From assembly GCA_041665005.1 (NCBI GenBank), contig JBAYJR010000002.1:25120-89119 (forward strand): 64,000 bases of DNA, given 5' to 3'. Positions 6,662 to 48,400 of the stretch are shown piece after piece. Under the pieces are notes generated by a model. That model was given only the letters and a program-made list of their open reading frames with translations. It was not told the origin of the DNA and did not search any database. The stretch is from Candidatus Buchananbacteria bacterium (GTDB lineage: Bacteria; Patescibacteriota; Patescibacteriia; 2-01-FULL-39-33; JBAYJR01). Numbering within the stretch: the first letter of the stretch is position 1; each line of letters starts with the position of its first letter. Both the position numbers and the translations under genes were made by a program.

Positions 6662-6735
6662 TGGGAGATCGTCTAATGGTAGGACGCCGCGCTCTGGACG
6701 CGGTAATTCTGGTTCGACTCCAGGTCTCCCAGCCA
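6662..6735 (+). tRNA. tRNA-Gln (anticodon CUG), CCA encoded
   Basis: Manual fold. Acceptor stem UGGGAGA/UCUCCCA with the U1-A72 pair and G73 discriminator characteristic of bacterial tRNA-Gln. D stem GUCU/GGAC. Anticodon stem CCGCG/CGCGG with loop CUCUGGA, giving anticodon CUG. T stem UCUGG/CCAGG with loop UUCGACU. 3' end CCA. Confidence 0.85.
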
Positions 6736-35066: not shown

Positions 35067-35609
35067 ATGGCTAGAATTTTGTTAGTAACTACAGCTAACA
35101 ATCAGATCATTACCAATCTAAGTGAGGCGGGTAATGTCATGATAGTAGTAGAAGAGGAAAAAGAAGTAAGGGTATTGTGGAAAGGGTCGGCGGTTAATGA
35201 TAAGGTTTTAAAAAGATACGTTGAAGGTCTTACCGCCTTAAAAAAATTCAATATTTTAGCTAAAAATCCGGAAGCGGAAATTTTAGCTAAAATAAAACCC
35301 GTGAGTTTAAAGGAGAATCCTATGCCCAAAGAAAAGAAAAATAAGAAGTCAGTATTAGTGGAGGTCGGTACCGAAGGAACTAGACCGGGCTATGTGGGAG
35401 TTTTTGAGGGTGGTGAAACCCCAGCGACTAAAGCCCCGTGTGTTGTTTCGGTAGAAATGAGCTCCGAAGGGGCAATTTCTAATAAACCCGCTTATGTGAA
35501 GGTTTATCGAGATGGAAAGTTGATCGTTGATGTGGAGGCAGTAGTGGAACAAAGACCAGGGGGCGACGGGGGAATGTATCCCGTTGTTAAACTTAAATTA
35601 AAACAATAA
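35067..35609 (+). CDS. hypothetical protein
   Basis: RBS aaggagg 7 nt upstream. Terminator hairpin at 35614..35643. Confidence 0.5.
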   Translation: MARILLVTTANNQIITNLSEAGNVMIVVEEEKEVRVLWKGSAVNDKVLKRYVEGLTALKKFNILAKNPEAEILAKIKPVSLKENPMPKEKKNKKSVLVEVGTEGTRPGYVGVFEGGETPATKAPCVVSVEMSSEGAISNKPAYVKVYRDGKLIVDVEAVVEQRPGGDGGMYPVVKLKLKQ

Positions 35610-35700
35610 CTGCCAAGCGTATCCTTTAGGATACGCTTTTTTTATCCTTGACTATTTGCCGTTTTTTTGCTAGGGTATATTTAATTAAGGAGGTGTAATT

Positions 35701-35895
35701 ATGGCTGCTGTAAGGATCGTTGTAAAAGGCCCAACTGGTACAGTAAGTTTATTGCAAGTTTGTAAAGAGAGGGGGGAACTGGAGATTGTTACGGTTCGTC
35801 CCGCCGAAAGTTGTGCTATTTTTCTTGAGAAAGACGAAGGTGGAATGACCTGTATTTTTGGTGACGCTAATCTCGCCAAAGAAATAACAAGTTGA
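35701..35895 (+). CDS. hypothetical small protein (64 aa)
   Basis: RBS aggaggtg, upstream TTGACT promoter element, and a perfect terminator at 35911..35946. Confidence 0.5.
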   Translation: MAAVRIVVKGPTGTVSLLQVCKERGELEIVTVRPAESCAIFLEKDEGGMTCIFGDANLAKEITS

Positions 35896-35985: not shown

Positions 35986-37788
35986 ATGATTGAAAAAAAT
36001 ATTAGAAATTTTTGCATTATTGCTCACATTGATCACGGTAAATCTACGCTGGCGGATCGTTTTTTGGAATTAACCAAAACCGTGGCCAAGCGCGATATGA
36101 AGGATCAACTGTTAGATCAAATGGATATTGAGCGGGAGCGGGGAATTACTATTAAGTTGCAGCCGGTGCGGATGAATTATCATTTTAATAATCAAGATTA
36201 CGAATTAAATTTAATTGACACTCCCGGGCATGTCGATTTTACTTACGAAGTCTCTCGCAGTTTAGCGGCGGTAGAAGGGGCAATTTTGTTAGTTGATGCG
36301 ACGCAAGGGGTGCAGGCGCAAACTTTGGCTAATTTATATTTGGCCTTAGAGCAAGATTTAACTATTATTCCGGTGATTAATAAAATTGATTTACCGGCCT
36401 CGCAAGTAGAAAAATGTCGTGGGGAATTAAAAAATTTATTGGGTTGTGCGGATGAGGAAATAATTTTAGCTTCGGGCAAAAGCGGTCAGGGCGTGGAAGA
36501 AATTTTACAAGCCGTGGTCCGGTTGGTGCCACCACCAGTACTAAAGCCAGAGGCCCCGTTGCGAGCTTTAATTTTTGATTCGGTATTTGATGAGTATAAA
36601 GGAGTAATTGCTTTTGTTAGAGTAGTTGATGGTCAAATTAAGGCCGGTGATCAAGTGGCGATGTTTTCTAGTCGCAAAGAATCCGAAGTTTTGGAAGTAG
36701 GAATGTTTAAGCCCAAGTTAAGTCCGGTAGCTTCTTTGCAATCCGGAGAAATTGGTTATGTGGTAACTGGTCTTAAAGAAGTTAGGGAATGCAAAGTGGG
36801 CGACACTATTATTGCTGCTTTAGGAGTAGCACAAAATCAAGTAATTCCTTTACCGGGTTATAAAGAAGTTAAACCAATGGTTTTTGCCGGTATTTTTTGT
36901 CGGGATGGTTCGGATTTTCCAAAATTGCGTGATTCCATTGAAAAACTTAAATCCAATGATGCTTCATTAACTTTTGAGCCGGAAAATTCGCAAGCCTTGG
37001 GGTTTGGCTTTCGTTGCGGATTTTTGGGTTTATTGCATTTGGAAATTTTTCAAGAAAGATTGTTGCGCGAATATGGTTTAGATTTAGTAGTGACCACGCC
37101 TAGCGTGGCCTATAAAATTTATTTAAAAAATCGTCCGGAACCAGAAATTATTTATAATCCCTTACATTGGCCGGATCCGGGAGTAATTAATAGTATTGAA
37201 GAGCCGGTGATGAAATTAGATTTAGTTACGCCTAAAGATTATTTAGGTGGCGTCATGCAGTTGGCGCAAGAAAAAAGAGGAGTTTATTTAAATACTGAGT
37301 ATTTGGCTGAAGATTTGGTTTTGGTTCATTATCAAATTCCTTTGACGGCAATTTTAGTTGATTTTTATGATAAGCTAAAAAGTGTTTCTTCGGGCTATGC
37401 CTCATTGAATTATGAATTTTTTGGTTATCAAAAAGCGGAAGTAATTAAATTAGATATTTTGGTGGCGGAAGATAAAGTAGAAGCACTTTCTAGTATTGTT
37501 TATGAAGACGAGGCTTTTCGTGTTGGCCGAAAAATTTGTGAAACTTTGAAAGAAACTTTGCCTAAGCAACAATTTTTGGTAAAAATTCAAGCGGCCATTG
37601 GCGGTAAAATTGTGGCCTCGGAGCATTTGAGTGCTTTACGTAAAGATGTGACGGCTAAATTATATGGCGGTGATTGGACGCGCCGCGCTAAGTTGTTAGA
37701 AAAACAGAAAAAAGGTAAGAAAAAGATGATGCAACAAGGTCGGGTAGAAATTCCACCCGAAAGTTTTTTGGCGGTGTTAAAAAGATAA
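35986..37788 (+). CDS. lepA: elongation factor 4 (LepA)
   Basis: IRNFCIIAHIDHGKST G1 motif, DTPGHVDF, NKIDL, and the LepA-specific C-terminal domain. Confidence 0.97.
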   Translation: MIEKNIRNFCIIAHIDHGKSTLADRFLELTKTVAKRDMKDQLLDQMDIERERGITIKLQPVRMNYHFNNQDYELNLIDTPGHVDFTYEVSRSLAAVEGAILLVDATQGVQAQTLANLYLALEQDLTIIPVINKIDLPASQVEKCRGELKNLLGCADEEIILASGKSGQGVEEILQAVVRLVPPPVLKPEAPLRALIFDSVFDEYKGVIAFVRVVDGQIKAGDQVAMFSSRKESEVLEVGMFKPKLSPVASLQSGEIGYVVTGLKEVRECKVGDTIIAALGVAQNQVIPLPGYKEVKPMVFAGIFCRDGSDFPKLRDSIEKLKSNDASLTFEPENSQALGFGFRCGFLGLLHLEIFQERLLREYGLDLVVTTPSVAYKIYLKNRPEPEIIYNPLHWPDPGVINSIEEPVMKLDLVTPKDYLGGVMQLAQEKRGVYLNTEYLAEDLVLVHYQIPLTAILVDFYDKLKSVSSGYASLNYEFFGYQKAEVIKLDILVAEDKVEALSSIVYEDEAFRVGRKICETLKETLPKQQFLVKIQAAIGGKIVASEHLSALRKDVTAKLYGGDWTRRAKLLEKQKKGKKKMMQQGRVEIPPESFLAVLKR

Positions 37789-37852
37789 CGGCTTGCTAAA
37801 AAATTTAAAATAGCTTAAACTAAGGGCAATAAATTTAAGGAGGGCAGTGATT

Positions 37853-38014
37853 ATGAAGAGGTGCTTAATAAACACTCCAGGCGGAGTGCTAACAATTTGG
37901 GTTTTTGCCAAAGGGACTTTTGGTAGTGTTAAAACCATCGACAGTTGCCCGGTAGCAAGACCAACAACCTTCTGCCAGGATTTATGGCGGTTGATAAAAG
38001 ATTCGTTTAAGTGA
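37853..38014 (+). CDS. small Cys-containing protein (~53 aa), hypothetical
   Basis: AAGGAGG 8 nt upstream of the ATG, and a terminator hairpin cccgtaaaaatagtatttacggg followed by a T-run at 38041..38070. Confidence 0.4.
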   Translation: MKRCLINTPGGVLTIWVFAKGTFGSVKTIDSCPVARPTTFCQDLWRLIKDSFK

Positions 38015-38069
38015 TAGTTAGTTTGCAGTTCGTCAGTTTTCCCGTAAAAATAGTATTTACGGGATTTTT

Positions 38070-38098
38070 TTGACATTTTTTAACCCAGGTTGTAAGAT
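38070..38098 (+). promoter_or_regulatory. promoter TTGACA-N17-TAAGAT, duplicated at 39097..39125
   Basis: ttgacattttttaacccaggttgtaagat compared with ttgacatttttcaacctaggttataagat, 25/29 identical. Each is followed by an aggaggtgtt RBS at the same spacing from the start codon. Confidence 0.6.
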
Positions 38099-38129
38099 AG
38101 GGGAAATTAAAAAAAAGGGAGGTGTTACC

Positions 38130-39053
38130 GTGAGCAAACAAAAAATGAATCCACGTGTATTGCACTTAAGTGTTAATTCCATCATTCAGTTTATTGCAAA
38201 ATCTAAACTGGCCGATCGGGGCTATTCAAAAATCTCATCTCAAAATTTGTTAAAAAGCATTGATTGGGATCTGGACCTTGGGAACGTTAAAAAAATACTT
38301 TCTTTGGGTCAGTGTCAACTCGCTAGAGAAAGCACTTCTGTACTAAACTTTCTGATTTTGAATTTAGACAGAGTTGAATATTTTCGGAAAGAAGAAATTT
38401 TGAAAATATCAAAATGGCTAAAAAATAGCAGAAAGAACAGAGGTATTTTAAAAGAGTTTTTGAAAGATGACCAAGTTAGCAGTAGAGAGGGTTTTAATTT
38501 GTCTATAACTCGTATTGCAGAAATGCTAACCTTGATAAAGGTTCTAGACATCGCTGTTGGTGAGAAGATGATACAAATAGTAGAAGGAACAAAATTAGCA
38601 GCCAAAAAAGTAATCGTCTTCGATCGTCCCCAATGCAGATCACCGTTAACCTGGAATGAAGCCTTTGATGTGTTAGCGAAGGTTAAGTTAATTGATCGGG
38701 TTAGAATGAGCCTTCCCTTAAAACTGGAAAAAAAGATTAATCCGTCTAAGACGAGCACCAAAAAGGTTATCAACATGGTAATCGCTCAAACTTCTCGTAG
38801 CAGATCTTCTGTTGAGAGTGTGGTGATTTTTGCTACACCCAAAGTAAAATATTATGCGAGTGATCGCATTAAAAAGGTAAAGGATTATTTGCAGAAAAAC
38901 AAAACTTTGGAGTTTGAGTTAAAGTGTCTAACGGGAGACAAAAAGATGCCTGAGTCCTTTGAGCAATTAGCCGAGATTTTAGTGGCCATGGCTATGGCGT
39001 ATCTGGCTCATTATCAAGGCCTGATTATTTTAGAGTGGCACGCAGAGAATTAG
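38130..39053 (+). CDS. hypothetical protein, paralogue A (GTG start); no recognisable domain
   Basis: GGAGGTG followed by 5 nt and then GTG, the same geometry as paralogue B. The segment LKEFLKDDQVSSREGFNLSITRIAEMLTLIKVLDIAVGE aligns with paralogue B. The ORF track starts earlier, at 38070. Confidence 0.55.
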   Translation: MSKQKMNPRVLHLSVNSIIQFIAKSKLADRGYSKISSQNLLKSIDWDLDLGNVKKILSLGQCQLARESTSVLNFLILNLDRVEYFRKEEILKISKWLKNSRKNRGILKEFLKDDQVSSREGFNLSITRIAEMLTLIKVLDIAVGEKMIQIVEGTKLAAKKVIVFDRPQCRSPLTWNEAFDVLAKVKLIDRVRMSLPLKLEKKINPSKTSTKKVINMVIAQTSRSRSSVESVVIFATPKVKYYASDRIKKVKDYLQKNKTLEFELKCLTGDKKMPESFEQLAEILVAMAMAYLAHYQGLIILEWHAEN

Positions 39054-39057
39054 CTTA

Positions 39058-39095
39058 GACTACCCCCAAAAGTAATTTAATTTGGGGGTTTTTTA
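39058..39095 (+). terminator. rho-independent terminator
   Basis: cccccaaa-agtaatttaa-tttggggg followed by T6. Confidence 0.7.
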
Positions 39096-39154
39096 TTTGA
39101 CATTTTTCAACCTAGGTTATAAGATGGGTAAAACTACAAAAAGGAGGTGTTGTC

Positions 39155-39667
39155 ATGAAAAAACAGGAAATTAAAAAACCGGCAAAATATCCGCAGTTTA
39201 TCCAATTGTTGCACTTTCAATCGGCGGTTAAATTGTTTATTCAATTTAAGTTAGTTGATAACTTTGATAGTTTAAAAGTTATCTCTCAGGAATTGTTAGA
39301 AATAATTAAACCGAAACCCGAGAGCGTCAGGCTGGTTGTTTCGCTAACCAGGTGCTCAATTAATCGTCCCCAAACATCGTTCTTCGGTTTTGCTATTTTA
39401 GCCGCGGGCAAAATTAATTCGTACGAGAAGGATATGATTAGCGAAGTGGCCAGCTATTTAGCTAAAGACAAAGAGCTGAAAATAACTCTTAAGAAGTTTT
39501 TGAAAGAGGACAGTTCCCAGGAAAGTTTGTCCAGGGCATTTAACCGCATTGCGAGTTTTATGATAACAATTAGAATCATGGAAATGTCGGTTGAGCAAGG
39601 AATTGCCACTTGTTCAATTGATCCAAAAAATGGCAGAATGATTTGCTTTAACCCCCAGGAAGTTTAA
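39155..39667 (+). CDS. hypothetical protein, paralogue B of 38130..39053
   Basis: The segment LKKFLKEDSSQESLSRAFNRIASFMITIRIMEMSVEQG aligns with paralogue A. Terminator hairpin at 39652..39686. Confidence 0.55.
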   Translation: MKKQEIKKPAKYPQFIQLLHFQSAVKLFIQFKLVDNFDSLKVISQELLEIIKPKPESVRLVVSLTRCSINRPQTSFFGFAILAAGKINSYEKDMISEVASYLAKDKELKITLKKFLKEDSSQESLSRAFNRIASFMITIRIMEMSVEQGIATCSIDPKNGRMICFNPQEV

Positions 39668-39792
39668 CTGGGGTTTTTATTTTTGTATTAATTTGATTTG
39701 CTCTTGACATTTATTGTATTTCTGTTATAATGTATTTGCTTAAGAAAGACACAAAAGCGGCCAAAGTGCGCTTTTTTATTTATTTTACTTAA

Positions 39793-41613
39793 ATGAGCTT
39801 AAATAACATTAGAAACATTGCGATCATTGCTCACGTTGACCACGGCAAGACTACGCTGGTGGATGCTTTGTTGCGTCAATCTAAAACCTACTTATCCAAA
39901 GAATTACAAGGCTCTGATTTGATTATGGATAGTAATGATTTGGAGCGCGAGCGCGGTATTACTATTTTTTCTAAAAATGCTTCGGTGGTTTATGATGGCA
40001 TTAAAATTAATATTATTGATACTCCCGGGCACGCCGATTTTGGTGGGGAAGTAGAACGGGTCTTGAATATGGCCGACGGCTGTTTGTTATTAGTGGATGC
40101 CAAAGAAGGGCCCATGCCTCAGACTCGGTTTGTTTTAAAAAAGGCTTTGCAGCAAAAATTAAGAATTATTGTGGTGATTAATAAAATTGATAAACCGGAC
40201 GCTAGATCACACTACGCCTTGGACAAAACTTTTGAATTGTTTATGGAATTAGGGGCGGATGATAAAACTTTAGATTTTCCGGTTTTATATGCGGCCGCCA
40301 AACAAGGTAAGGCGGGTTTGCAAGAAAAATTAGCGGACATGACAGATGTGACGCCAATTTTTGATACGATTATTAAAGAAGTACCGCCACCTAGTGGTGA
40401 TGATGATTTGCCGTTGCAAATAATGATTAATACGGTCGCGGGTGATAATTTTAAGGGTCGGATTGCCATTGGTCGCATTTACAATGGTCAAATTAAAGCC
40501 GGTCAGGAAGTAATGCATATTAATCGTTCGGGTCAGATGAATAAATTTAGAATTATTTCGTTAATGACTTTTACGGGTTTAGCTCGGCAAGAAACTCCTT
40601 TTGCTAAAGCGGGCGACATTGTGGCAATTGCCGGTATTCCGGAAGTAACCGTCGGTGAAACTTTGGCTGATGTGCAAAATCCGATTGCTTTACCATTATT
40701 ACATATTGATGAGCCAACCGTTAAAATGAATTTTTTAGTTAATGATTCGCCGTTTACCGGTCGCGAAGGTCAATATTCTACTTCCCGCCAAATTCGCGAA
40801 CGTTTATTTAAAGAATTAGAAACCGACGTGGCTTTGCAGGTAGTGGATAATCCAGCCGGTGGCTGGGAAGTGGCCGGTCGGGGTGAATTACATTTGGCAA
40901 TTTTGATTGAAAGATTGCGTCGTGAAGGTTTTGAATTTCAAGTTTCGCGGCCACAGGTGATTGAAAAAGAAGTTAATGGTAAGAAGATTGTGCCATTTGA
41001 AAGTGTCTTTATTGAAGTGACCGACGATTTTGCGGGAATTGTTATTCAAAAATTAAGTGGCCGGCGCGGAGAATTAAGAAACATGCACAGCGACGGTAAT
41101 ATTACTCACTTAGAGTTTAACATTCCCACGCGTGGATTGTTTGGTTATCGCTCAGAGTTTTTAACCGACACTCGTGGTTTGGGTATTATGAATTTTATCT
41201 TTTTGGATTATTTGCCCGACCCTGGTAATTGGAAGGATCGTGAACAAGGTTCGTTAGTCGTATTTGAAGACGGCATTTCTAACAACTATGGTTTAGTAAA
41301 TATTCAGGATCGTGGCACTTTATTTATTGGTTCGGCGGTTTCGGTTTATAAGGGCCAAGTGATTGGTCAAAATTCTCGGGCCGAAGATATTTGGGTTAAT
41401 GTTTGTAAGGCCAAACAATTATCCAACATGCGTTCTAAGGGTGATGGTGTTTCCGAAGCCTTAAACACCCCGCACGTTATGGACTTAGAAGATGCTTTAG
41501 AATATATTAATGATGAAGAATTGGTTGAGGTAACTCCACAAAATATTCGGATTCGCAAGAAGGTTTTGGATTTAAACAAAGCTAAACGGGAATCTAAAGG
41601 GATTAAGGAATAA
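39793..41613 (+). CDS. typA: translational GTPase TypA/BipA
   Basis: [31 protein letters not shown] and NKIDKP motifs, and a 606-aa length matching BipA. Confidence 0.95.
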
Positions 41614-41815
41614 ATTTTTAAGCTTAAATAAAAAAACGCCACCAGTTTAGCTGGGGGTGTTTTTTTGGTTTTTTATTGGCCCAGCAAAGGATAAATAGTC
41701 CACAAAACCATCATAATCGCCACGAAGGCTGAAACGATGATCCAAAGAATGCGATTGGTTTTTCTATTCATAGTAATTATATTTTAGCATAACTAGCTTA
41801 TTTTAAAAACCGCCC

Positions 41816-42022
41816 TTAGCTTAAAATAATCTCAGGGCGGTCAGCGATAAAACGGATAATTTTTTTGACAACCACCGGCTGGCCATTGGTTAGTTGGGTT
41901 ATATCAACTCGGTGGCCATAATTTAGTGGTTCCTGACAAGTTTGGCAAATGTCGGCTTCAAAGTCGTTGGCATGCCCATGGTCGCAGTATTTTATGGGTA
42001 TTTGGTGTAGATATTCTTCCAT
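41816..42022 (-). CDS. small putative zinc-ribbon protein (68 aa)
   Basis: RBS aaggagg on the minus strand. CxH...CxxC cysteine/histidine pattern. Confidence 0.45.
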   Translation of the reverse strand: MEEYLHQIPIKYCDHGHANDFEADICQTCQEPLNYGHRVDITQLTNGQPVVVKKIIRFIADRPEIILS

Positions 42023-42105
42023 TAGCTAATTCCTCCTTTGGCCGTATTTTAGGCGTTATTTTAATTTTTGTCAAAAAGCTTTTGATGTGATAAAATTACT
42101 GCCGT

Positions 42106-43833
42106 ATGACCCAAAAAATTTGGCAAATTAAGCCCAAGGTTCCAGCTGACGTGGTTGAGAAATTTCCCGAAATTCAACCTTTGGTTTTACAGTTATTATA
42201 TAATCGTGGCTTAGTCACCACGGAACAAATTGAAGAATTTTTAAATCCCGATTATACGGAGGATTTACATGATCCTTTTTTATTTGCCGACGCCCTAAAA
42301 GCAGTCAAACGTATTTTAGCGGCTAAAACTAAAAAGGAAAAAGTAGTAGTTTATGGTGATTATGACGCGGACGGTGTTTCGGCCAGTGCGGTAATTATTA
42401 GTTTGTTGGATCAATTAGGTATTAGTAATGATGTTTATATTCCTTATCGCGATATTGAAGGCTATGGTTTAAATGAGGAAGCGGTCAGAGGAATTGCCAC
42501 GGCTGGCGCTAAATTGGTTATTACCGTTGATTGTGGTATTACCAATAATAATGAAGTGGATATTTTACAAGCGCAGGGGGTAGATGTAATTATTACAGAT
42601 CATCATCAACCTCCGCCAAATTTGCCGCGGGCTTTGGCCATTTTAAATCCTAATGTTAAAACCGAAAAATATCCTTATCAGGGTTTGTCCGGCGCTGGAG
42701 TGGCTTTTAAATTAGTCCAAGCGGTTTTAAAATATTTAAAAGAACAAAATGATAGTTTACTACCACCCAAAGGTTGGGAAAAATGGTTGTTAGATTTAGT
42801 AGCCATTGCTACGATTAGCGATATGTGTCCTTTGGTTGGAGAAAATCGCACCTTGGTGCGTTGGGGCACAATTGTTCTGCAAAAAAGTAAACGGCTTGGT
42901 TTGCAGGAATTGGTTAAATTAATGGGCAATGATTTAAAAAAATTAGAGGTTTGGTCGGTGGCTTGGCAAATTGGTCCGCGGCTTAACGCGGCTGGACGGT
43001 TAAACCACGCTAGCACGGCTTACCGTTTGTTGATTACTAAAGATTTAGCCGAAGCAAAAAAATTAGCTTTAGAATTAGAAGAAACTAATCGCGAACGGCA
43101 AAAGTTAACTGATAAAATGGCGGAAGAGGCCAAGGCGATGCTTGGCGAGGTGGATGACAGTCGGCGGATTTTGTTGTTGGTTAAAGATGATTGGCCGTTG
43201 GGTTTGGTAGGTTTAATTGCTGGGCGGTTGTCAGATCAATATAATCGGCCCAGTTTAGTGGCCTGTAAAAATCACGAAGGAAATTATGTTGGTTCGGGTC
43301 GCAGTATTACCGGTTTTAATTTAATTCAAGCCATTCAAGAATGCAGTGAATTATTATTGCACGCCGGAGGCCACAGTCAGGCGGCGGGTTTTACGGTAGC
43401 GGATAAATTTAAGTTGGAAGAATTTTTTGCAAAATTGGACAGCTTAACTCAAAAACAAATTAAACCCGAACAGATGCGGGCGGTAATTGAAGTGGAAATG
43501 GAAGTAGGTTTGGATAAAATTGATTGGGCTTTGTGGGAAGAAATTTCTAGTTTTGCGCCGTTTGGTTACGCCAATCCTCAGCCAGTTTTATTAGCTAGAG
43601 GTTTAAAAATAGAAAGTTTTCAGACTATCGGTAAAGATAACAAACATTTACGATTGTTGGTTAGCCACGGTAGTCAAAAAATCCATAAAACCATTGGTTT
43701 TAGTTTAGCCAAGCAAGCGGCAGGTTTTAAAGTCGGGGATAAAGTTGATTTGGTTTTTGAGTTGGGGGTTAATGAATGGAATGGCAATCGGGAGTTGCAA
43801 TTAAAAATTGTAGATTTTTTGGCTAGTAGCTAA
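42106..43833 (+). CDS. recJ: single-stranded-DNA-specific exonuclease RecJ
   Basis: DHH motifs VYGDYDADGVSA and ITDHH, a DHHA1 domain, and a C-terminal OB fold. Confidence 0.9.
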   Translation: MTQKIWQIKPKVPADVVEKFPEIQPLVLQLLYNRGLVTTEQIEEFLNPDYTEDLHDPFLFADALKAVKRILAAKTKKEKVVVYGDYDADGVSASAVIISLLDQLGISNDVYIPYRDIEGYGLNEEAVRGIATAGAKLVITVDCGITNNNEVDILQAQGVDVIITDHHQPPPNLPRALAILNPNVKTEKYPYQGLSGAGVAFKLVQAVLKYLKEQNDSLLPPKGWEKWLLDLVAIATISDMCPLVGENRTLVRWGTIVLQKSKRLGLQELVKLMGNDLKKLEVWSVAWQIGPRLNAAGRLNHASTAYRLLITKDLAEAKKLALELEETNRERQKLTDKMAEEAKAMLGEVDDSRRILLLVKDDWPLGLVGLIAGRLSDQYNRPSLVACKNHEGNYVGSGRSITGFNLIQAIQECSELLLHAGGHSQAAGFTVADKFKLEEFFAKLDSLTQKQIKPEQMRAVIEVEMEVGLDKIDWALWEEISSFAPFGYANPQPVLLARGLKIESFQTIGKDNKHLRLLVSHGSQKIHKTIGFSLAKQAAGFKVGDKVDLVFELGVNEWNGNRELQLKIVDFLASS

Positions 43834-43849: not shown

Positions 43850-44917
43850 ATGCCAAACATAGAAAATGATTGTTTAAAACTTGCTCAAATACTTTTGGAA
43901 CTAAAAAACCTTAAGTCAGAATTTACTGTGGCCTATCAAGAGGCCTTGGTTAGTCATGATTTGACTAGACCTAGAGAGTTAAAAAAACAGCTTAAGATTA
44001 AATTAGTAGAAATTAATAGCGAGGTTGCAAAATTAGAAGAAAAGACGGATCCTTATAATATAGGCTTAAGAAGGCGCTTGGCCAAAGAGAATGGTTTTAC
44101 ATATGTTAGTAATTTTTACAATGGTTCGGCGAGAGTTGCCAAAGGTCACAAGCGGTTTTGTATTGATCGTGCTGGTAAAGAGGTGGACCCGGAGAATACA
44201 AGCGGTAATGCGCATGATTATTTTGAGGATATCGCGGTAGTTAAAAAAGATGAAAAATATTTTTATGTTAATTCTTCTGGTCAGAAAATCAATGCTGAAA
44301 AATATCAGACGGCTTGTAATTTTTCCGAAGGTCTAGCTGCGGTTGTTAAAGACGAAAAACATTTTTTTATTAATCGAGCCGGCCGTAAAATTAGCTCAAA
44401 AATGTATGATTCTGCCCTTAGTTTTTCCGAAGGCTTGGCCGCTGTCGAAGAAGACAAAAAATGGTTTTATATTGATTATACTGGTAAAGATTTATTTTCT
44501 GAAAGATACGATGACGCCGGAATTTTTCATGAAGGCTTGGCCTGTGTTAAAAAAAATAATAAATATTTTTTTATAAATAAAGCTGGTCTATTGGCTATTC
44601 CAGAAAGATACGATAAGGCCTATAGTTTTTCGGCAGGAATCGCCTTAGTTAAAAAAGATGATAAGTGGTTTTATATTGATTGTGCTGGGCAGGAGATTGA
44701 TTCAAGGGGATATAAACCTGTAGAAAATTTTTGTCGGGGTTTTGCTTGGGTTAGCCAAAACGGAAAATATCTTGTTGTTAATACTGCTTTTGAGCAGATT
44801 AGTCCAACTAAATATGATTCTTTTAGAATTATAGAACAGGGGTTAGGCTGGGTTAAAAAAGATGGAAAATCTTTTTATGTTGATTATCGCGGTCAAAAAA
44901 TGTTTGACGCTGAGTAA
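43850..44917 (+). CDS. WG-repeat (KWG-type beta-propeller-like repeat) protein with a shared N-terminal helical module; tandem paralogue 1
   Basis: N-terminal MPNIENDCLKLAQILLELKNLKSEF module, then about 9 repeats of GLAxVKKDxKYFYIxxxGKxIxxEKYDxAxxFSEGLA. Confidence 0.7.
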   Translation: MPNIENDCLKLAQILLELKNLKSEFTVAYQEALVSHDLTRPRELKKQLKIKLVEINSEVAKLEEKTDPYNIGLRRRLAKENGFTYVSNFYNGSARVAKGHKRFCIDRAGKEVDPENTSGNAHDYFEDIAVVKKDEKYFYVNSSGQKINAEKYQTACNFSEGLAAVVKDEKHFFINRAGRKISSKMYDSALSFSEGLAAVEEDKKWFYIDYTGKDLFSERYDDAGIFHEGLACVKKNNKYFFINKAGLLAIPERYDKAYSFSAGIALVKKDDKWFYIDCAGQEIDSRGYKPVENFCRGFAWVSQNGKYLVVNTAFEQISPTKYDSFRIIEQGLGWVKKDGKSFYVDYRGQKMFDAE

Positions 44918-44926
44918 TTTTTATCT

Positions 44927-46000
44927 ATGCCAAATATAAAAACCAACTGCCAAGAACTTACTAACTTACTTTTGGCATTAAAAAACCTTAAGCCTGAGTT
45001 TGATTTGGCCTATCAAGAAGCCCTAGTTAGTCGTGACCTAACTAAGCTTAGAGAGTCCAAGAAGCAAATTGAAGGCAAAATAAAAGAACTAGAGGCCAAA
45101 CTTGACCCTTATAACATTGAACTACGAAAAAAACTAGCTGAAGAAAGCGGGTTTGACTTTGTTAATAATTTTCATGATGGTTGGGCTAAAGTTAGAAAGG
45201 ATGGAGAATATTTTTATGTTAATCAAGTCGGTAAAGCAATTAATTCCGAAAAATATGATGGTGCTGATGATTTTTCGGAAGGCCTAGCCTGGGTACATAT
45301 AAAGCACGAATATTTTTATATAGACCGTACCGGCGAAAGAACTAACTCGGAAACATATAGTAATGCTGGAACTTTTCATGAGGGCCTAGCTTGGATTGGA
45401 AAAAACGGAAAATACTTTTACATCAACCCAAAGGGTAAAATAGCGATTTCAGAAAAATATGACGACGCTGAAGATTTTTCTGAAGGTCTGGCCTCGGTTG
45501 CAAAAAATTTGCCAAAAAAGCTTGCCCATAGGCCTACCTATACCTATGTGTACATTAACCGCACTGGTAAAAGAATTAACTCGGAAACATATGATGCTGC
45601 TGGAATTTTTCATGAAGGCCTAGCCTGGGTTGAAAAAGACAGAGAATTTTTTTGTATCGACCACGCCGGTAAAACAATTATTTCGGAAAAATACGACGAA
45701 GTCGGGGATTTTTTTGACGGTTTGGCTCGAGTTAAAAAAGATGGAGAACACTTTTATATAGACCGTACCGGTAAAATCGTTATCTCAGCAAAATATGATG
45801 AAGCTGGAGATTTTTCGGAAGGCCTGGCTTTAGTTAAAAAAGATGGAGAATACTTTTATATAGACCGTGCCGGTAAAATGGCTATTTCGGAAAAATACGA
45901 CGACGCCGGAGATTTTTTTGAAGGCTTAGCTTTGGTTCAAAAAAACAACGAATACTACTACATTGATCATGCTGGTCGCAAAATATTTGACACGGAATAA
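44927..46000 (+). CDS. WG-repeat protein with shared N-terminal module; tandem paralogue 2
   Basis: Same architecture. Its 5' end is about 90% identical at the nucleotide level to paralogue 3. Confidence 0.7.
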   Translation: MPNIKTNCQELTNLLLALKNLKPEFDLAYQEALVSRDLTKLRESKKQIEGKIKELEAKLDPYNIELRKKLAEESGFDFVNNFHDGWAKVRKDGEYFYVNQVGKAINSEKYDGADDFSEGLAWVHIKHEYFYIDRTGERTNSETYSNAGTFHEGLAWIGKNGKYFYINPKGKIAISEKYDDAEDFSEGLASVAKNLPKKLAHRPTYTYVYINRTGKRINSETYDAAGIFHEGLAWVEKDREFFCIDHAGKTIISEKYDEVGDFFDGLARVKKDGEHFYIDRTGKIVISAKYDEAGDFSEGLALVKKDGEYFYIDRAGKMAISEKYDDAGDFFEGLALVQKNNEYYYIDHAGRKIFDTE

Positions 46001-46009
46001 TTTTTATTT

Positions 46010-47317
46010 ATGCTAAACACTGAACACAATTGCCAAGAACTTACCAATTTACTTCAGGAACTAAAAAACCTTAAGCCTGAGTTTGATTTGGCCTATCAAG
46101 AAGCCTTAATCAGCCGTGACCTGACTAAACTTAGAGAATTAAAGGTGGTGCTTAAAGATAAGGTAGAGAAGTTAGAGATGAAGATCGACCCTCACGATAT
46201 TGAATTGCGGAAAAAAATTGCTGAAAAAAATTTTTTTGATTTTGTTGATATTTTTTCCGAAGGCTTGGCCCTAGCAAGAAAGTCTAGAGTATATTCTGAT
46301 AGAGGATATTCTTATACTAACCGGGCTGGAAAAGTAATTAGTTCAGAGGTTTATAATGACGCTAGACGGTTTTCCGAAGGTTTGGCTGGGGTTACTACTA
46401 GTAATTATAGTAAAGGATGGTTTTTTATTGATCGTGCTGGTCAGGTAATTAATTCTGAAAAATATGATAATGTTCGTGATTTTTCCGAAGGCTTGGCTTG
46501 TGTTTGGAGAGGAAGTAAATGGTTTTATATTGACCAAAATGGCAATGATGTATTTAAAAAAAGATTTGATGCTGCTAATAGTTTTAGTAATGGATTGGCT
46601 TGTGTGGCTATAGATCATGATCATTTTTATATTGATCATACCGGTAAAAATGCTTTTTTAGAAAAGTATGACTTTGTGGATAATTTTCACGAAGATTTAG
46701 CTAGAGTGGGTAATTTTTCTGAGGGTGCTAATAATATGGACTATTTTTTTATTAATCGGGCTGGTCAAGCGATAAATCAAGAAAAGTATATAGAGGCTAA
46801 TAATTTTTTTGAAGGCCTGGCTGCGGTAAAAAAATATTATTCAGGTGGTTATAAGTATTCTTTCATTGATTCTACGGGAGTAGAAGTTATTCCGGCAAAG
46901 TATGACTATGCTACTAGATTTTTTGAAGGTTTGGCCCGAGTCAAAAGAAATGGCAAATTCTATTTTATTGATCACGCTGGCAAAGAGATAAATAGTGAAG
47001 GATATGACGGAGCCAGTGATTTTCATGAAGGCTTAGCTGCGGTTAAAACCAATAAAAAGGAAGAATGGTTCTACATTAACCAGATTGGCCAAAAAATTAG
47101 TCCGACTAGGTATTATTATGCCGGAAATTTTTCTGAAGGCGTAGCTTTGGTCAGAAAGGATAATAAAAACTTTTTGATTAATAAATTTGGTGAAGAAATT
47201 GGTTCGGATAAATATGATGGCGCCGAAAGTTATGGCGAGGGTTTGTATTTGGTAAGAAAAGGCTACGAGAACAAATTTTATATTGATCAGCGCGGTCGTA
47301 AAATATTTGACGCTTAA
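46010..47317 (+). CDS. WG-repeat protein with shared N-terminal module; tandem paralogue 3
   Basis: Same architecture, 435 aa. Confidence 0.7.
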   Translation: MLNTEHNCQELTNLLQELKNLKPEFDLAYQEALISRDLTKLRELKVVLKDKVEKLEMKIDPHDIELRKKIAEKNFFDFVDIFSEGLALARKSRVYSDRGYSYTNRAGKVISSEVYNDARRFSEGLAGVTTSNYSKGWFFIDRAGQVINSEKYDNVRDFSEGLACVWRGSKWFYIDQNGNDVFKKRFDAANSFSNGLACVAIDHDHFYIDHTGKNAFLEKYDFVDNFHEDLARVGNFSEGANNMDYFFINRAGQAINQEKYIEANNFFEGLAAVKKYYSGGYKYSFIDSTGVEVIPAKYDYATRFFEGLARVKRNGKFYFIDHAGKEINSEGYDGASDFHEGLAAVKTNKKEEWFYINQIGQKISPTRYYYAGNFSEGVALVRKDNKNFLINKFGEEIGSDKYDGAESYGEGLYLVRKGYENKFYIDQRGRKIFDA

Positions 47318-47329
47318 TAATTTTTATAT

Positions 47330-48400
47330 ATGCGAAACACTGAGCATAATTGCCAAGAACTTACTAATTTACTTCAGGAACTAAAAAACTTAAAGTCCGA
47401 ATTTGATGTGATTCATCAAGAGGCCTTGGTTAGCCGTGATTTGACTAAAATTAGAGAGCTTAAAAAACAAATTGAAAGTAAGGTGGTAGAATTGGAACCA
47501 AAAATAGATCCATATAATATAGAACTAAGAAAAGAAATAGCCAAGGAAAACGGTTTTGAATTTGTCGGTAATTTTCATGATGGCTGGGCGAGGGTTCAAA
47601 AGGATGGAGAATGGTTTTTTATTAGCCAAACCGGTAAAAAACTTAGCTGGGAAAAATATAAAGCTGTCTCTGATTTTCATGATGGTTTGGCTCGGATTAT
47701 TATAGATAACAAATATTTTTATCTTAATCAAATTGAAGAGGTGATAAATCAAAAAGGATATAGTGAGGCTAGTGATTTTTCGGAAGGTTTGGCTTGTGTT
47801 AAATATGGTTCATCTTATTATTTTATTGATCGTGAGGATAAAAGGGTTTTTGGAGAATATGTAGAGGCTAAGGGTTTTTCCGAAGGCTTGGCTTGGGTAA
47901 AAAATCAGCAGAAAAAATGGTATATTATTGATCGGACTGGTCAGGAAGTCGGCTCAGAAAAATATGATGGTGCTTTAAGTTTTTCTGAAGGAGTGGCCTG
48001 GGCCAATAAAGATGGACTTTGGTTTATTGTTGATCGTGATGGTAAAAAAATCAGTAACAAATGCTATGAGAGGGTTGAGAGTTTTCATGAAGGTTTGGCT
48101 CCAGTTACTTCTAGTTATGGTAAGGGTTGGTTTTTTATTGATCATTCTGAAAAAGAAGTAAGCCTAGCAAGATATGGTATGGCTGGTTATTTTTCGGAAG
48201 GCTTGGCTGCTGTTAAGCATGGTAGTAGTTATTTATATATTGATCATGCCGGCCAAGATGTATTTTTTGAAAGATACGACGTAAAGGCTGATTACTTTTA
48301 TGATGGTTTGGCTGAAGTTATAAAAGGCTCACTGAAATTTTATATTGATCATCGTGGTCAAGAAGTGTTTGGTAGCTGGCGCGTACAAGTTGATTGGTAA
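47330..48400 (+). CDS. WG-repeat protein with shared N-terminal module; tandem paralogue 4
   Basis: Same architecture, 356 aa. Confidence 0.7.
   Translation: MRNTEHNCQELTNLLQELKNLKSEFDVIHQEALVSRDLTKIRELKKQIESKVVELEPKIDPYNIELRKEIAKENGFEFVGNFHDGWARVQKDGEWFFISQTGKKLSWEKYKAVSDFHDGLARIIIDNKYFYLNQIEEVINQKGYSEASDFSEGLACVKYGSSYYFIDREDKRVFGEYVEAKGFSEGLAWVKNQQKKWYIIDRTGQEVGSEKYDGALSFSEGVAWANKDGLWFIVDRDGKKISNKCYERVESFHEGLAPVTSSYGKGWFFIDHSEKEVSLARYGMAGYFSEGLAAVKHGSSYLYIDHAGQDVFFERYDVKADYFYDGLAEVIKGSLKFYIDHRGQEVFGSWRVQVDW

Follow-up and report, generated by a model that had tools for sequence, protein, structure and literature searches.

Organization of the locus

The DNA analysed here (the window, 64 kb) is part of a contig of about 118 kb from a metagenome-assembled genome of Candidatus Buchananbacteria (CPR/Patescibacteria), an uncultured, groundwater-type organism, and its genes lie on the + strand almost throughout. 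Between lepA (35986..37788, +; Pfam GTP_EFTU/LepA_C) and typA (39704..41613, +), which has its own consensus promoter (TTGACA-16-TATAAT, 39704-39731), are two genes that we call ORF1 (38130..39053, +) and ORF2 (39155..39667, +); the latter carries the NCBI name 'hypothetical protein WCW02_01050'. The gene recJ (42106..43833, +; Pfam DHH/DHHA1/RecJ_OB) lies further downstream. The gap between lepA and recJ measures 4.3 kb and contains a 53-aa ORF, ORF1, ORF2, typA and a 68-aa ORF on the minus strand. With a GC content of 0.36, against about 0.38 for the window, the ORF1/ORF2 region is not odd in composition. In an independent assembly, that of run SRR6484324 in Logan, positions 36861-39970 are matched with 100% identity and the arrangement is the same; this arrangement is therefore not an assembly artefact.

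ORF1 encodes 307 amino acids from a GTG at 38130, a length also returned by an independent gene call, and ORF2 encodes 170 amino acids from an ATG at 39155. The preliminary description had the length of ORF2 right and that of ORF1 as 308 amino acids. The N-termini of the two proteins align with each other (M[S/K]KQ...). A longer version of ORF1 (327 amino acids, from a TTG at 38070) is implausible and unlikely to be used, because its start codon would be the -35 hexamer itself.

Paralogy and coding potential

The proposal that the two genes are paralogues is borne out by two BLASTP alignments, one between residues 9-143 of ORF1 and 17-146 of ORF2 (31% identity, E 5e-15) and the other between residues 167-307 of ORF1 and 13-159 of ORF2 (24% identity, E 3e-9). 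It follows that ORF1 consists of two fused copies of a module and ORF2 of one, so that three copies are present in total. According to the BLASTP segments and a three-copy alignment, the tandem modules of ORF1, each helical and about 150 amino acids long, occupy approximately 38130-38609 and 38610-39050 (+), while ORF2 comprises one module and a predicted C-terminal β-hairpin.

In a codon-threaded alignment of the three copies, identity is highest at codon position 2 (0.51-0.61), lower at position 1 (0.39-0.47) and lowest at position 3 (0.31-0.36). Such an order is expected when selection constrains the protein and synonymous sites are saturated. Despite this saturation the reading frames of all three copies are intact over 147-170 codons. 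The log-odds score for codon usage exceeds zero in the annotated frames only (0.14 for ORF1 and 0.19 for ORF2); both values fall at the bottom of the range for the genes of the window (mean 0.36, range 0.14-0.52). Judged from these signals in the sequence, ORF1 and ORF2 are real, old and diverged protein-coding paralogues. Their age can be bounded loosely: lepA and its closest sampled orthologues share 0.42-0.46 of third positions, which is above the 0.31-0.36 of the paralogues, and the duplications should thus be at least comparably old. If they are that old, the missing homologues described below reflect poor sampling of the lineage, fast divergence of the proteins, or both.

Promoters, leaders and terminators

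The two genes had been described as self-contained units of promoter, ribosome-binding site, reading frame and terminator, and all these parts were located for both of them, on the + strand. Upstream of ORF1, the predicted intrinsic terminator T0 (38040..38064; 9-bp stem, T-run at 38065-38071), found by a terminator scan and with an RNAfold energy of -11.3 kcal/mol, is predicted to end the transcript of lepA and the small ORF. Promoter P1 (38070..38098) reads TTGACA-17-TAAGAT and contains the near-palindrome AACCCAGGTT in its spacer (38082-38091). The Shine-Dalgarno sequence of ORF1, GGGAGGTG (38117..38124), is located 5 nt before the GTG start codon and aligns with the leader of ORF2. ORF1 is followed by a second predicted intrinsic terminator, T1 (39062..39089; 9-bp stem, 10-nt loop, T-run at 39090-39095; RNAfold -13.1 kcal/mol), which the scan missed because the loop is longer than 8 nt.

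The second unit repeats this layout. Promoter P2 (39097..39125) is again TTGACA-17-TAAGAT, and its spacer holds the perfect 10-bp palindrome AACCTAGGTT (39109-39118), nested in an imperfect palindrome of 26 bp (39101-39126). The Shine-Dalgarno sequence of ORF2, AAGGAGGTG (39141..39149), lies 5 nt before the ATG. In the predicted intrinsic terminator T2 (39653..39673; 6-bp stem, T-run at 39674-39684; RNAfold -11.2 kcal/mol) the stop codon of ORF2 is part of the loop. We considered whether apparently compensatory changes in the stems of T0 and T1 indicate common descent and do not assert this, because terminators of separate origin come to look alike.

The duplication of the promoter, as originally noted, is real, with 26 of 29 nt identical between P1 and P2 rather than the 25 first counted; the spacer is kept at 14 of 17 positions. 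The identical spacing claimed for the ribosome-binding site applies to its distance from the start codon, as GGAGGTGTT ends 5 nt upstream of the start in both genes; the distance between the -10 element and the ribosome-binding site differs by 2 nt, owing to an indel in a run of A. Taken from the T-run through the -35 element, spacer, -10 element, leader and Shine-Dalgarno sequence to the start codon, this control block is identical at 51 of 62 positions (82%), with a binomial P of about 3e-14 against an expectation of 0.35; neutral sites of the adjoining ORFs are about 31-36% identical. Such identity next to saturated synonymous sites argues that selection acts on how strongly the genes are expressed or on how they are controlled, or else that gene conversion homogenizes the block. 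Much of the identity stems from the hexamers, the leader rich in A and the Shine-Dalgarno sequence.

A degenerate form of the 29-nt promoter occurs at two sites in the 64 kb, P1 and P2, and in none of 100 shuffled sequences. Promoter-like matches in general show no enrichment in the region (28 against 19.9 ± 5.2 expected). What counts is therefore that the promoters are duplicated and where they lie, not how well they match the consensus. The spacer motif AACCNNGGTT likewise has two occurrences in the window, those in P1 and P2, against 1.3 expected; it is not enriched in itself, and its recurrence may simply be a consequence of the duplication. The sequence TTGACATTT also starts the typA promoter, here and in one relative, so that this part of the motif is generic to the clade.

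The control block has changed less than the proteins in the course of evolution and was therefore used as a probe for further cassettes. The search suggested by the preliminary description returned no further copy in the window and none in the fetched loci of relatives; the pattern likewise had no match in viral contigs, and the strict 29-mer had none in metagenome contigs. The relaxed pattern TTGACATTTTTNAACCNNGGTT gave eight matches, all of which are plainly fortuitous: they lack a -10 element and a related ORF, and their GC contents range from 0.32 to 0.66. Rfam lists no family in the ORF1/ORF2 region.

Searches for homologues

Both proteins are orphans in every collection searched, as had been supposed. 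A word-indexed search of 5.8 billion proteins, and a full HMMER search in which 1.84 billion cluster representatives were compared with the three-copy profile, each returned ORF1 and ORF2 themselves and nothing else. Searches with the local profile and with jackhmmer through all ORFs of at least 60 amino acids in the window and in 87 fetched loci yielded no homologue. The statement that no domain can be recognized also held: neither protein has a significant match in Pfam, NCBIfam, PADLOC (no family at E ≤ 1), PHROGs or BFVD, searches of the PDB by single sequence and by profile gave nothing relevant, and fold searches were without significant match. Sub-threshold matches to DUF5886 (E 0.063) and DUF1694 (E 0.15) were dismissed as noise. 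Within the databases and relatives searched, ORF1 and ORF2 are carried by one genome only.

Genomic neighbourhood

We compared the locus with 80 loci of LepA relatives (LepA identity 62-72%); the genomes they come from are species representatives and belong to Buchananbacteria, Falkowbacteria and other Patescibacteria. In 67 of the 80, lepA is followed by recJ, which starts 108-2400 bp further on, in many cases after a gap of less than 270 bp; ORF1, ORF2 and typA are found downstream of lepA in none. This bears out the view of ORF1 and ORF2 as accessory genes, and no homologue stands at this position in any of the 80 relatives. The picture of an insertion between two conserved translation-GTPase genes has to be corrected, because lepA and typA are not neighbours in any of these relatives. 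With recJ after lepA and typA elsewhere in the relatives, typA too belongs to what is specific to this lineage in the slot. By gene order, the conserved frame is lepA-recJ, with lepA as its upstream and recJ as its downstream anchor, and ORF1, ORF2 and typA share the variable slot between them, a generic synteny break.

The larger gaps between lepA and recJ in the relatives are occupied by genes for an NTP transferase, a CBS-domain protein, a NUDIX protein, FabH, a metallophosphoesterase and an AAA_14/DUF4143 ATPase, along with some ORFs without a Pfam match; the ORFs that fill these gaps are unrelated to ORF1 and ORF2. On long contigs of relatives, typA is preceded by a Pfam-less protein of about 1250 amino acids and followed by the Dus, PLD and RarA genes. 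This large protein was considered as a source of ORF1 and ORF2 and shows no similarity to them. Identities to the closest TypA proteins are 80, 77 and 73%, and in the relative with 77% identity neither ORF2 nor recJ adjoins typA. Since the TypA identities to other Patescibacteria (73-80%) are in line with that of LepA (72%), they fit vertical descent.

Predicted protein properties and a possible winged helix

ORF1 and ORF2 are predicted to be soluble, with neither a signal peptide nor a hydrophobic stretch of the kind seen in membrane segments. Both are basic (pI 9.4-9.9); this was rejected as a hint of nucleic-acid binding, as half of the proteins of the window have a pI above 9. The residues invariant in the three copies are mostly hydrophobic, together with Lys-32, Asp-35, Arg-71, Ser-75, Lys-113 and Glu-123 (ORF2 numbering), and form no obvious catalytic constellation as far as the alignment can indicate. 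The two proteins therefore probably act by binding and not by catalysis.

An AlphaFold2 model of ORF2, built from an alignment of the three module copies only, has a pLDDT of 66 and a pTM of 0.65, with values of 70-90 in a core from residue 45 to 150, and contains seven helices followed by the C-terminal β-hairpin. The corresponding model of ORF1 (pLDDT 41) was set aside as unusable. All fold matches were non-significant (E of at least 0.19, TM-score of at most 0.48). Of the top weak matches that Foldseek gave for the ORF2 model in the PDB, most are winged-helix proteins (MarR, Fur, ORC, TFIIIC, PadR, MecI), and the comparison with this type stays at E values of at least 0.4 and TM-scores, normalized by target, of at most 0.48. 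Residues 76 to 165, approximately, are modelled as four helices and then the hairpin, which resembles the arrangement in winged-helix regulators such as MarR, Fur and PadR. A candidate operator, AACCYAGGTT, sits at the same place in both promoter spacers, and a palindrome in the gene's own promoter is also a feature of autoregulated repressors. Several features set ORF2 apart from these regulators: searches of Pfam and NCBIfam gave no match to a helix-turn-helix or winged-helix family, in the model of pLDDT 66 the helix that would serve for recognition runs to 26 residues, and the hairpin that would form the 'wing' is missing from the third copy of the module. A winged-helix-like protein that binds its own promoter palindrome is thus a doubtful, low-confidence lead.

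Interpretation

We consider it fairly probable that ORF1 and ORF2 represent a species- or lineage-restricted family of soluble helical proteins, each separately expressed and probably acting by binding, that expanded in tandem at a synteny break. An ancestral unit of about 150 amino acids would have been duplicated in tandem at least twice together with its promoter, leader and terminator, and two of the three module copies would later have fused to give ORF1. Each gene would now be an insulated monocistronic transcription unit, in which a near-consensus, σ70-type promoter directly follows the preceding terminator, a leader of presumably about 25 nt ends in a strong GGAGGTG Shine-Dalgarno sequence 5 nt from the start codon, and an intrinsic terminator is placed after the ORF. 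The block from promoter to start codon may have been kept by purifying selection on expression or by local gene conversion. In this genome typA would have been relocated into the lepA-recJ break, a lineage-specific arrival alongside the orphans, at a place where relatives have nothing or unrelated ordinary genes. More tentatively, the C-terminal half of the proteins might resemble a winged helix; its binding to the AACCYAGGTT palindrome of the spacers would then result in auto- or cross-regulation.

A further-reaching version of this interpretation appears unlikely to us. It would make the module an unseen family, possibly with a new fold, that belongs to a fast-evolving conflict or regulatory system of an under-sampled Buchananbacteria lineage, either as self-regulating DNA-binding proteins or as immunity-type proteins of an episymbiotic lifestyle, with the conserved promoter-leader block as part of the mechanism.

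Could the two genes instead belong to a conflict system? The preliminary description had suggested a defence or toxin-related pair with constitutive expression, the latter deduced from the quality of the promoters, and the genes are indeed accessory, orphan and apparently fast-diverging, reside in a variable slot and have strong promoters. A two-component system of this kind is very improbable: PADLOC gave no match, Pfam and NCBIfam revealed no toxin, nuclease or ATPase domain, no polar motif of a catalytic type is conserved in the three copies, and neither conflict-system nor mobile marks are found nearby. A type II toxin-antitoxin pair has two different, co-transcribed components, whereas ORF1 and ORF2 are non-complementary paralogues of one module with T1 and P2 between them, an order that by prediction speaks against co-transcription. 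A related idea, which we regard as improbable, is that of an orphan array of immunity proteins, in which tandem helical cytoplasmic paralogues neutralize polymorphic toxins of competitors or hosts and the cognate toxin gene is missing. Tandem paralogues including a fused two-module protein, their small size, predicted helical and soluble character without signal peptide or transmembrane segment, extreme divergence, distribution in one lineage and a strong promoter for each gene are all reminiscent of the tandem immunity arrays of polymorphic toxins. In contrast to such arrays, no toxin or secretion-system gene lies within 10 kb on either side and no Pfam Imm or SUKH-type match was obtained, nor does any structural match support the idea.

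Phage morons are autonomous promoter-gene-terminator units inserted between conserved genes. ORF1 and ORF2 resemble them in having, by prediction, a promoter and terminator each and in standing between genes that are adjacent in relatives; the slot varies among relatives and typA is away from its usual neighbourhood. Cargo of a mobile element or a prophage remnant integrated 3' of lepA, which would have brought typA along, is nevertheless still less probable than an immunity array. The gene list within 10 kb on either side contains no integrase or transposase, there are no flanking direct or inverted repeats, and the only tRNA of the window is far from the two genes, at 6662. Unlike morons, the units have no prophage context and encode no phage-like protein (no significant PHROG or BFVD match), their flanks (lepA, typA, recJ) are chromosomal housekeeping genes and their base composition is normal. 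Viral contigs do not contain the promoter pattern, and the TypA identities, as noted above, fit vertical descent. Least probable of all is that ORF1 and ORF2 are non-functional, that is, ORFs that are open by chance, or pseudogenes now decaying after a duplication that once had a function. Codon-usage scores at the low end of the window genes, the lack of homologues and the low-confidence structure prediction for ORF1 would agree with it. It is countered by the three intact frames despite saturated synonymous sites, by the order of identity among codon positions (2 > 1 > 3), by the conservation of promoter, Shine-Dalgarno sequence and start spacing, and by a pTM of 0.65 reached for ORF2 from only three sequences.

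The interpretation as a lineage-restricted family agrees with what is known of the phylum, for which 54,343 lineage-specific clusters of unknown function have been catalogued, 45,788 of them at species level (PMC9132574). ORF1 and ORF2 have coding evidence and no homologue outside a narrow lineage, the two properties by which a lineage-restricted orphan (ORFan) is recognized, and like other ORFans of Patescibacteria/CPR they are small, domain-less and located at a synteny break. They differ from them in the three old copies of the module, in the one fusion and in a regulatory block that is much better conserved than synonymous sites, which argues for a real, long-maintained family and against a spurious gene call. 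The pair is a well-documented example of lineage-restricted ORFans and not a new kind of system; as one more species-restricted family among tens of thousands in the phylum, it matters little as it stands. Interest would rise if the proteins turned out to be regulators or conflict proteins of a new class. Three diverged copies in one genome constitute internal proof that a homologue-less 'orphan' is a real protein under selection, and the control block is a neat example, on a small scale, of a CPR promoter and leader kept by selection or by gene conversion. In Buchananbacteria and Falkowbacteria genomes, synteny breaks repeatedly at the lepA-recJ junction, to which typA would have moved in this lineage.

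Gene order at the lepA–recJ junction

The recJ gene directly follows lepA in 67 of the 80 related Patescibacteria genomes whose lepA loci were compared, the counterpart of this region in the window being 35986–43833. The lepA–recJ junction is a recurrent synteny break, and its occupants are ordinary genes that differ by lineage. In the genome studied here, typA has been relocated into this junction; in the relatives, typA lies downstream of a gene for a protein of about 1250 residues that carries no Pfam domain and upstream of Dus, PLD and RarA genes.

The promoter of typA is a perfect TTGACA-16-TATAAT, and the leader of about 60 nt that follows it (39731–39795) lacks a Shine-Dalgarno sequence and contains a small GC hairpin and then a T-run just upstream of the start codon. 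The same layout is present at positions 230–288 of the typA locus (L081) of the closest relative with available context, the TypA protein of which is 77% identical, and was not found in more distant relatives. The leader may be attenuator-like, or initiation there may be independent of a Shine-Dalgarno sequence.

Small and orphan reading frames, and a tandem family after recJ

Between lepA and the intrinsic terminator T0 (38040–38064) lies a 53-residue ORF on the forward strand (37853–38014), which the gene calls of the Logan assembly, an independent assembly of run SRR6484324, also include. It has a good Shine-Dalgarno site (AAGGAGGG), and there is no terminator between lepA and this ORF. It has a coding score of about zero, and no homologue was found among the relatives' loci. 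A coding score near zero was likewise obtained for a 68-residue ORF on the minus strand between typA and recJ (41816–42022). This ORF is preceded by an 11/12 promoter match on the same strand (42074–42046) and its product contains a Cys/His-rich stretch (C..H.H...C..C), with no homologue among the gap ORFs of the relatives.

Orphans are abundant throughout the neighbourhood around lepA. Two further ORFs, of 180 and 64 residues, are located between the gene for the ADP-forming acetyl-CoA synthetase and lepA (35067–35895), the shorter one with an exact AAGGAGGTG as its Shine-Dalgarno site; neither matches any family, and neither was detected in the loci of the 80 relatives.

Directly 3′ of recJ, four consecutive paralogous genes (43850–48400) form a second tandem family expansion. 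Their products of 355, 357, 435 and 356 residues are all made up of WG-containing beta repeats (Pfam PF14903, E-values of 1e-39 to 1e-58).
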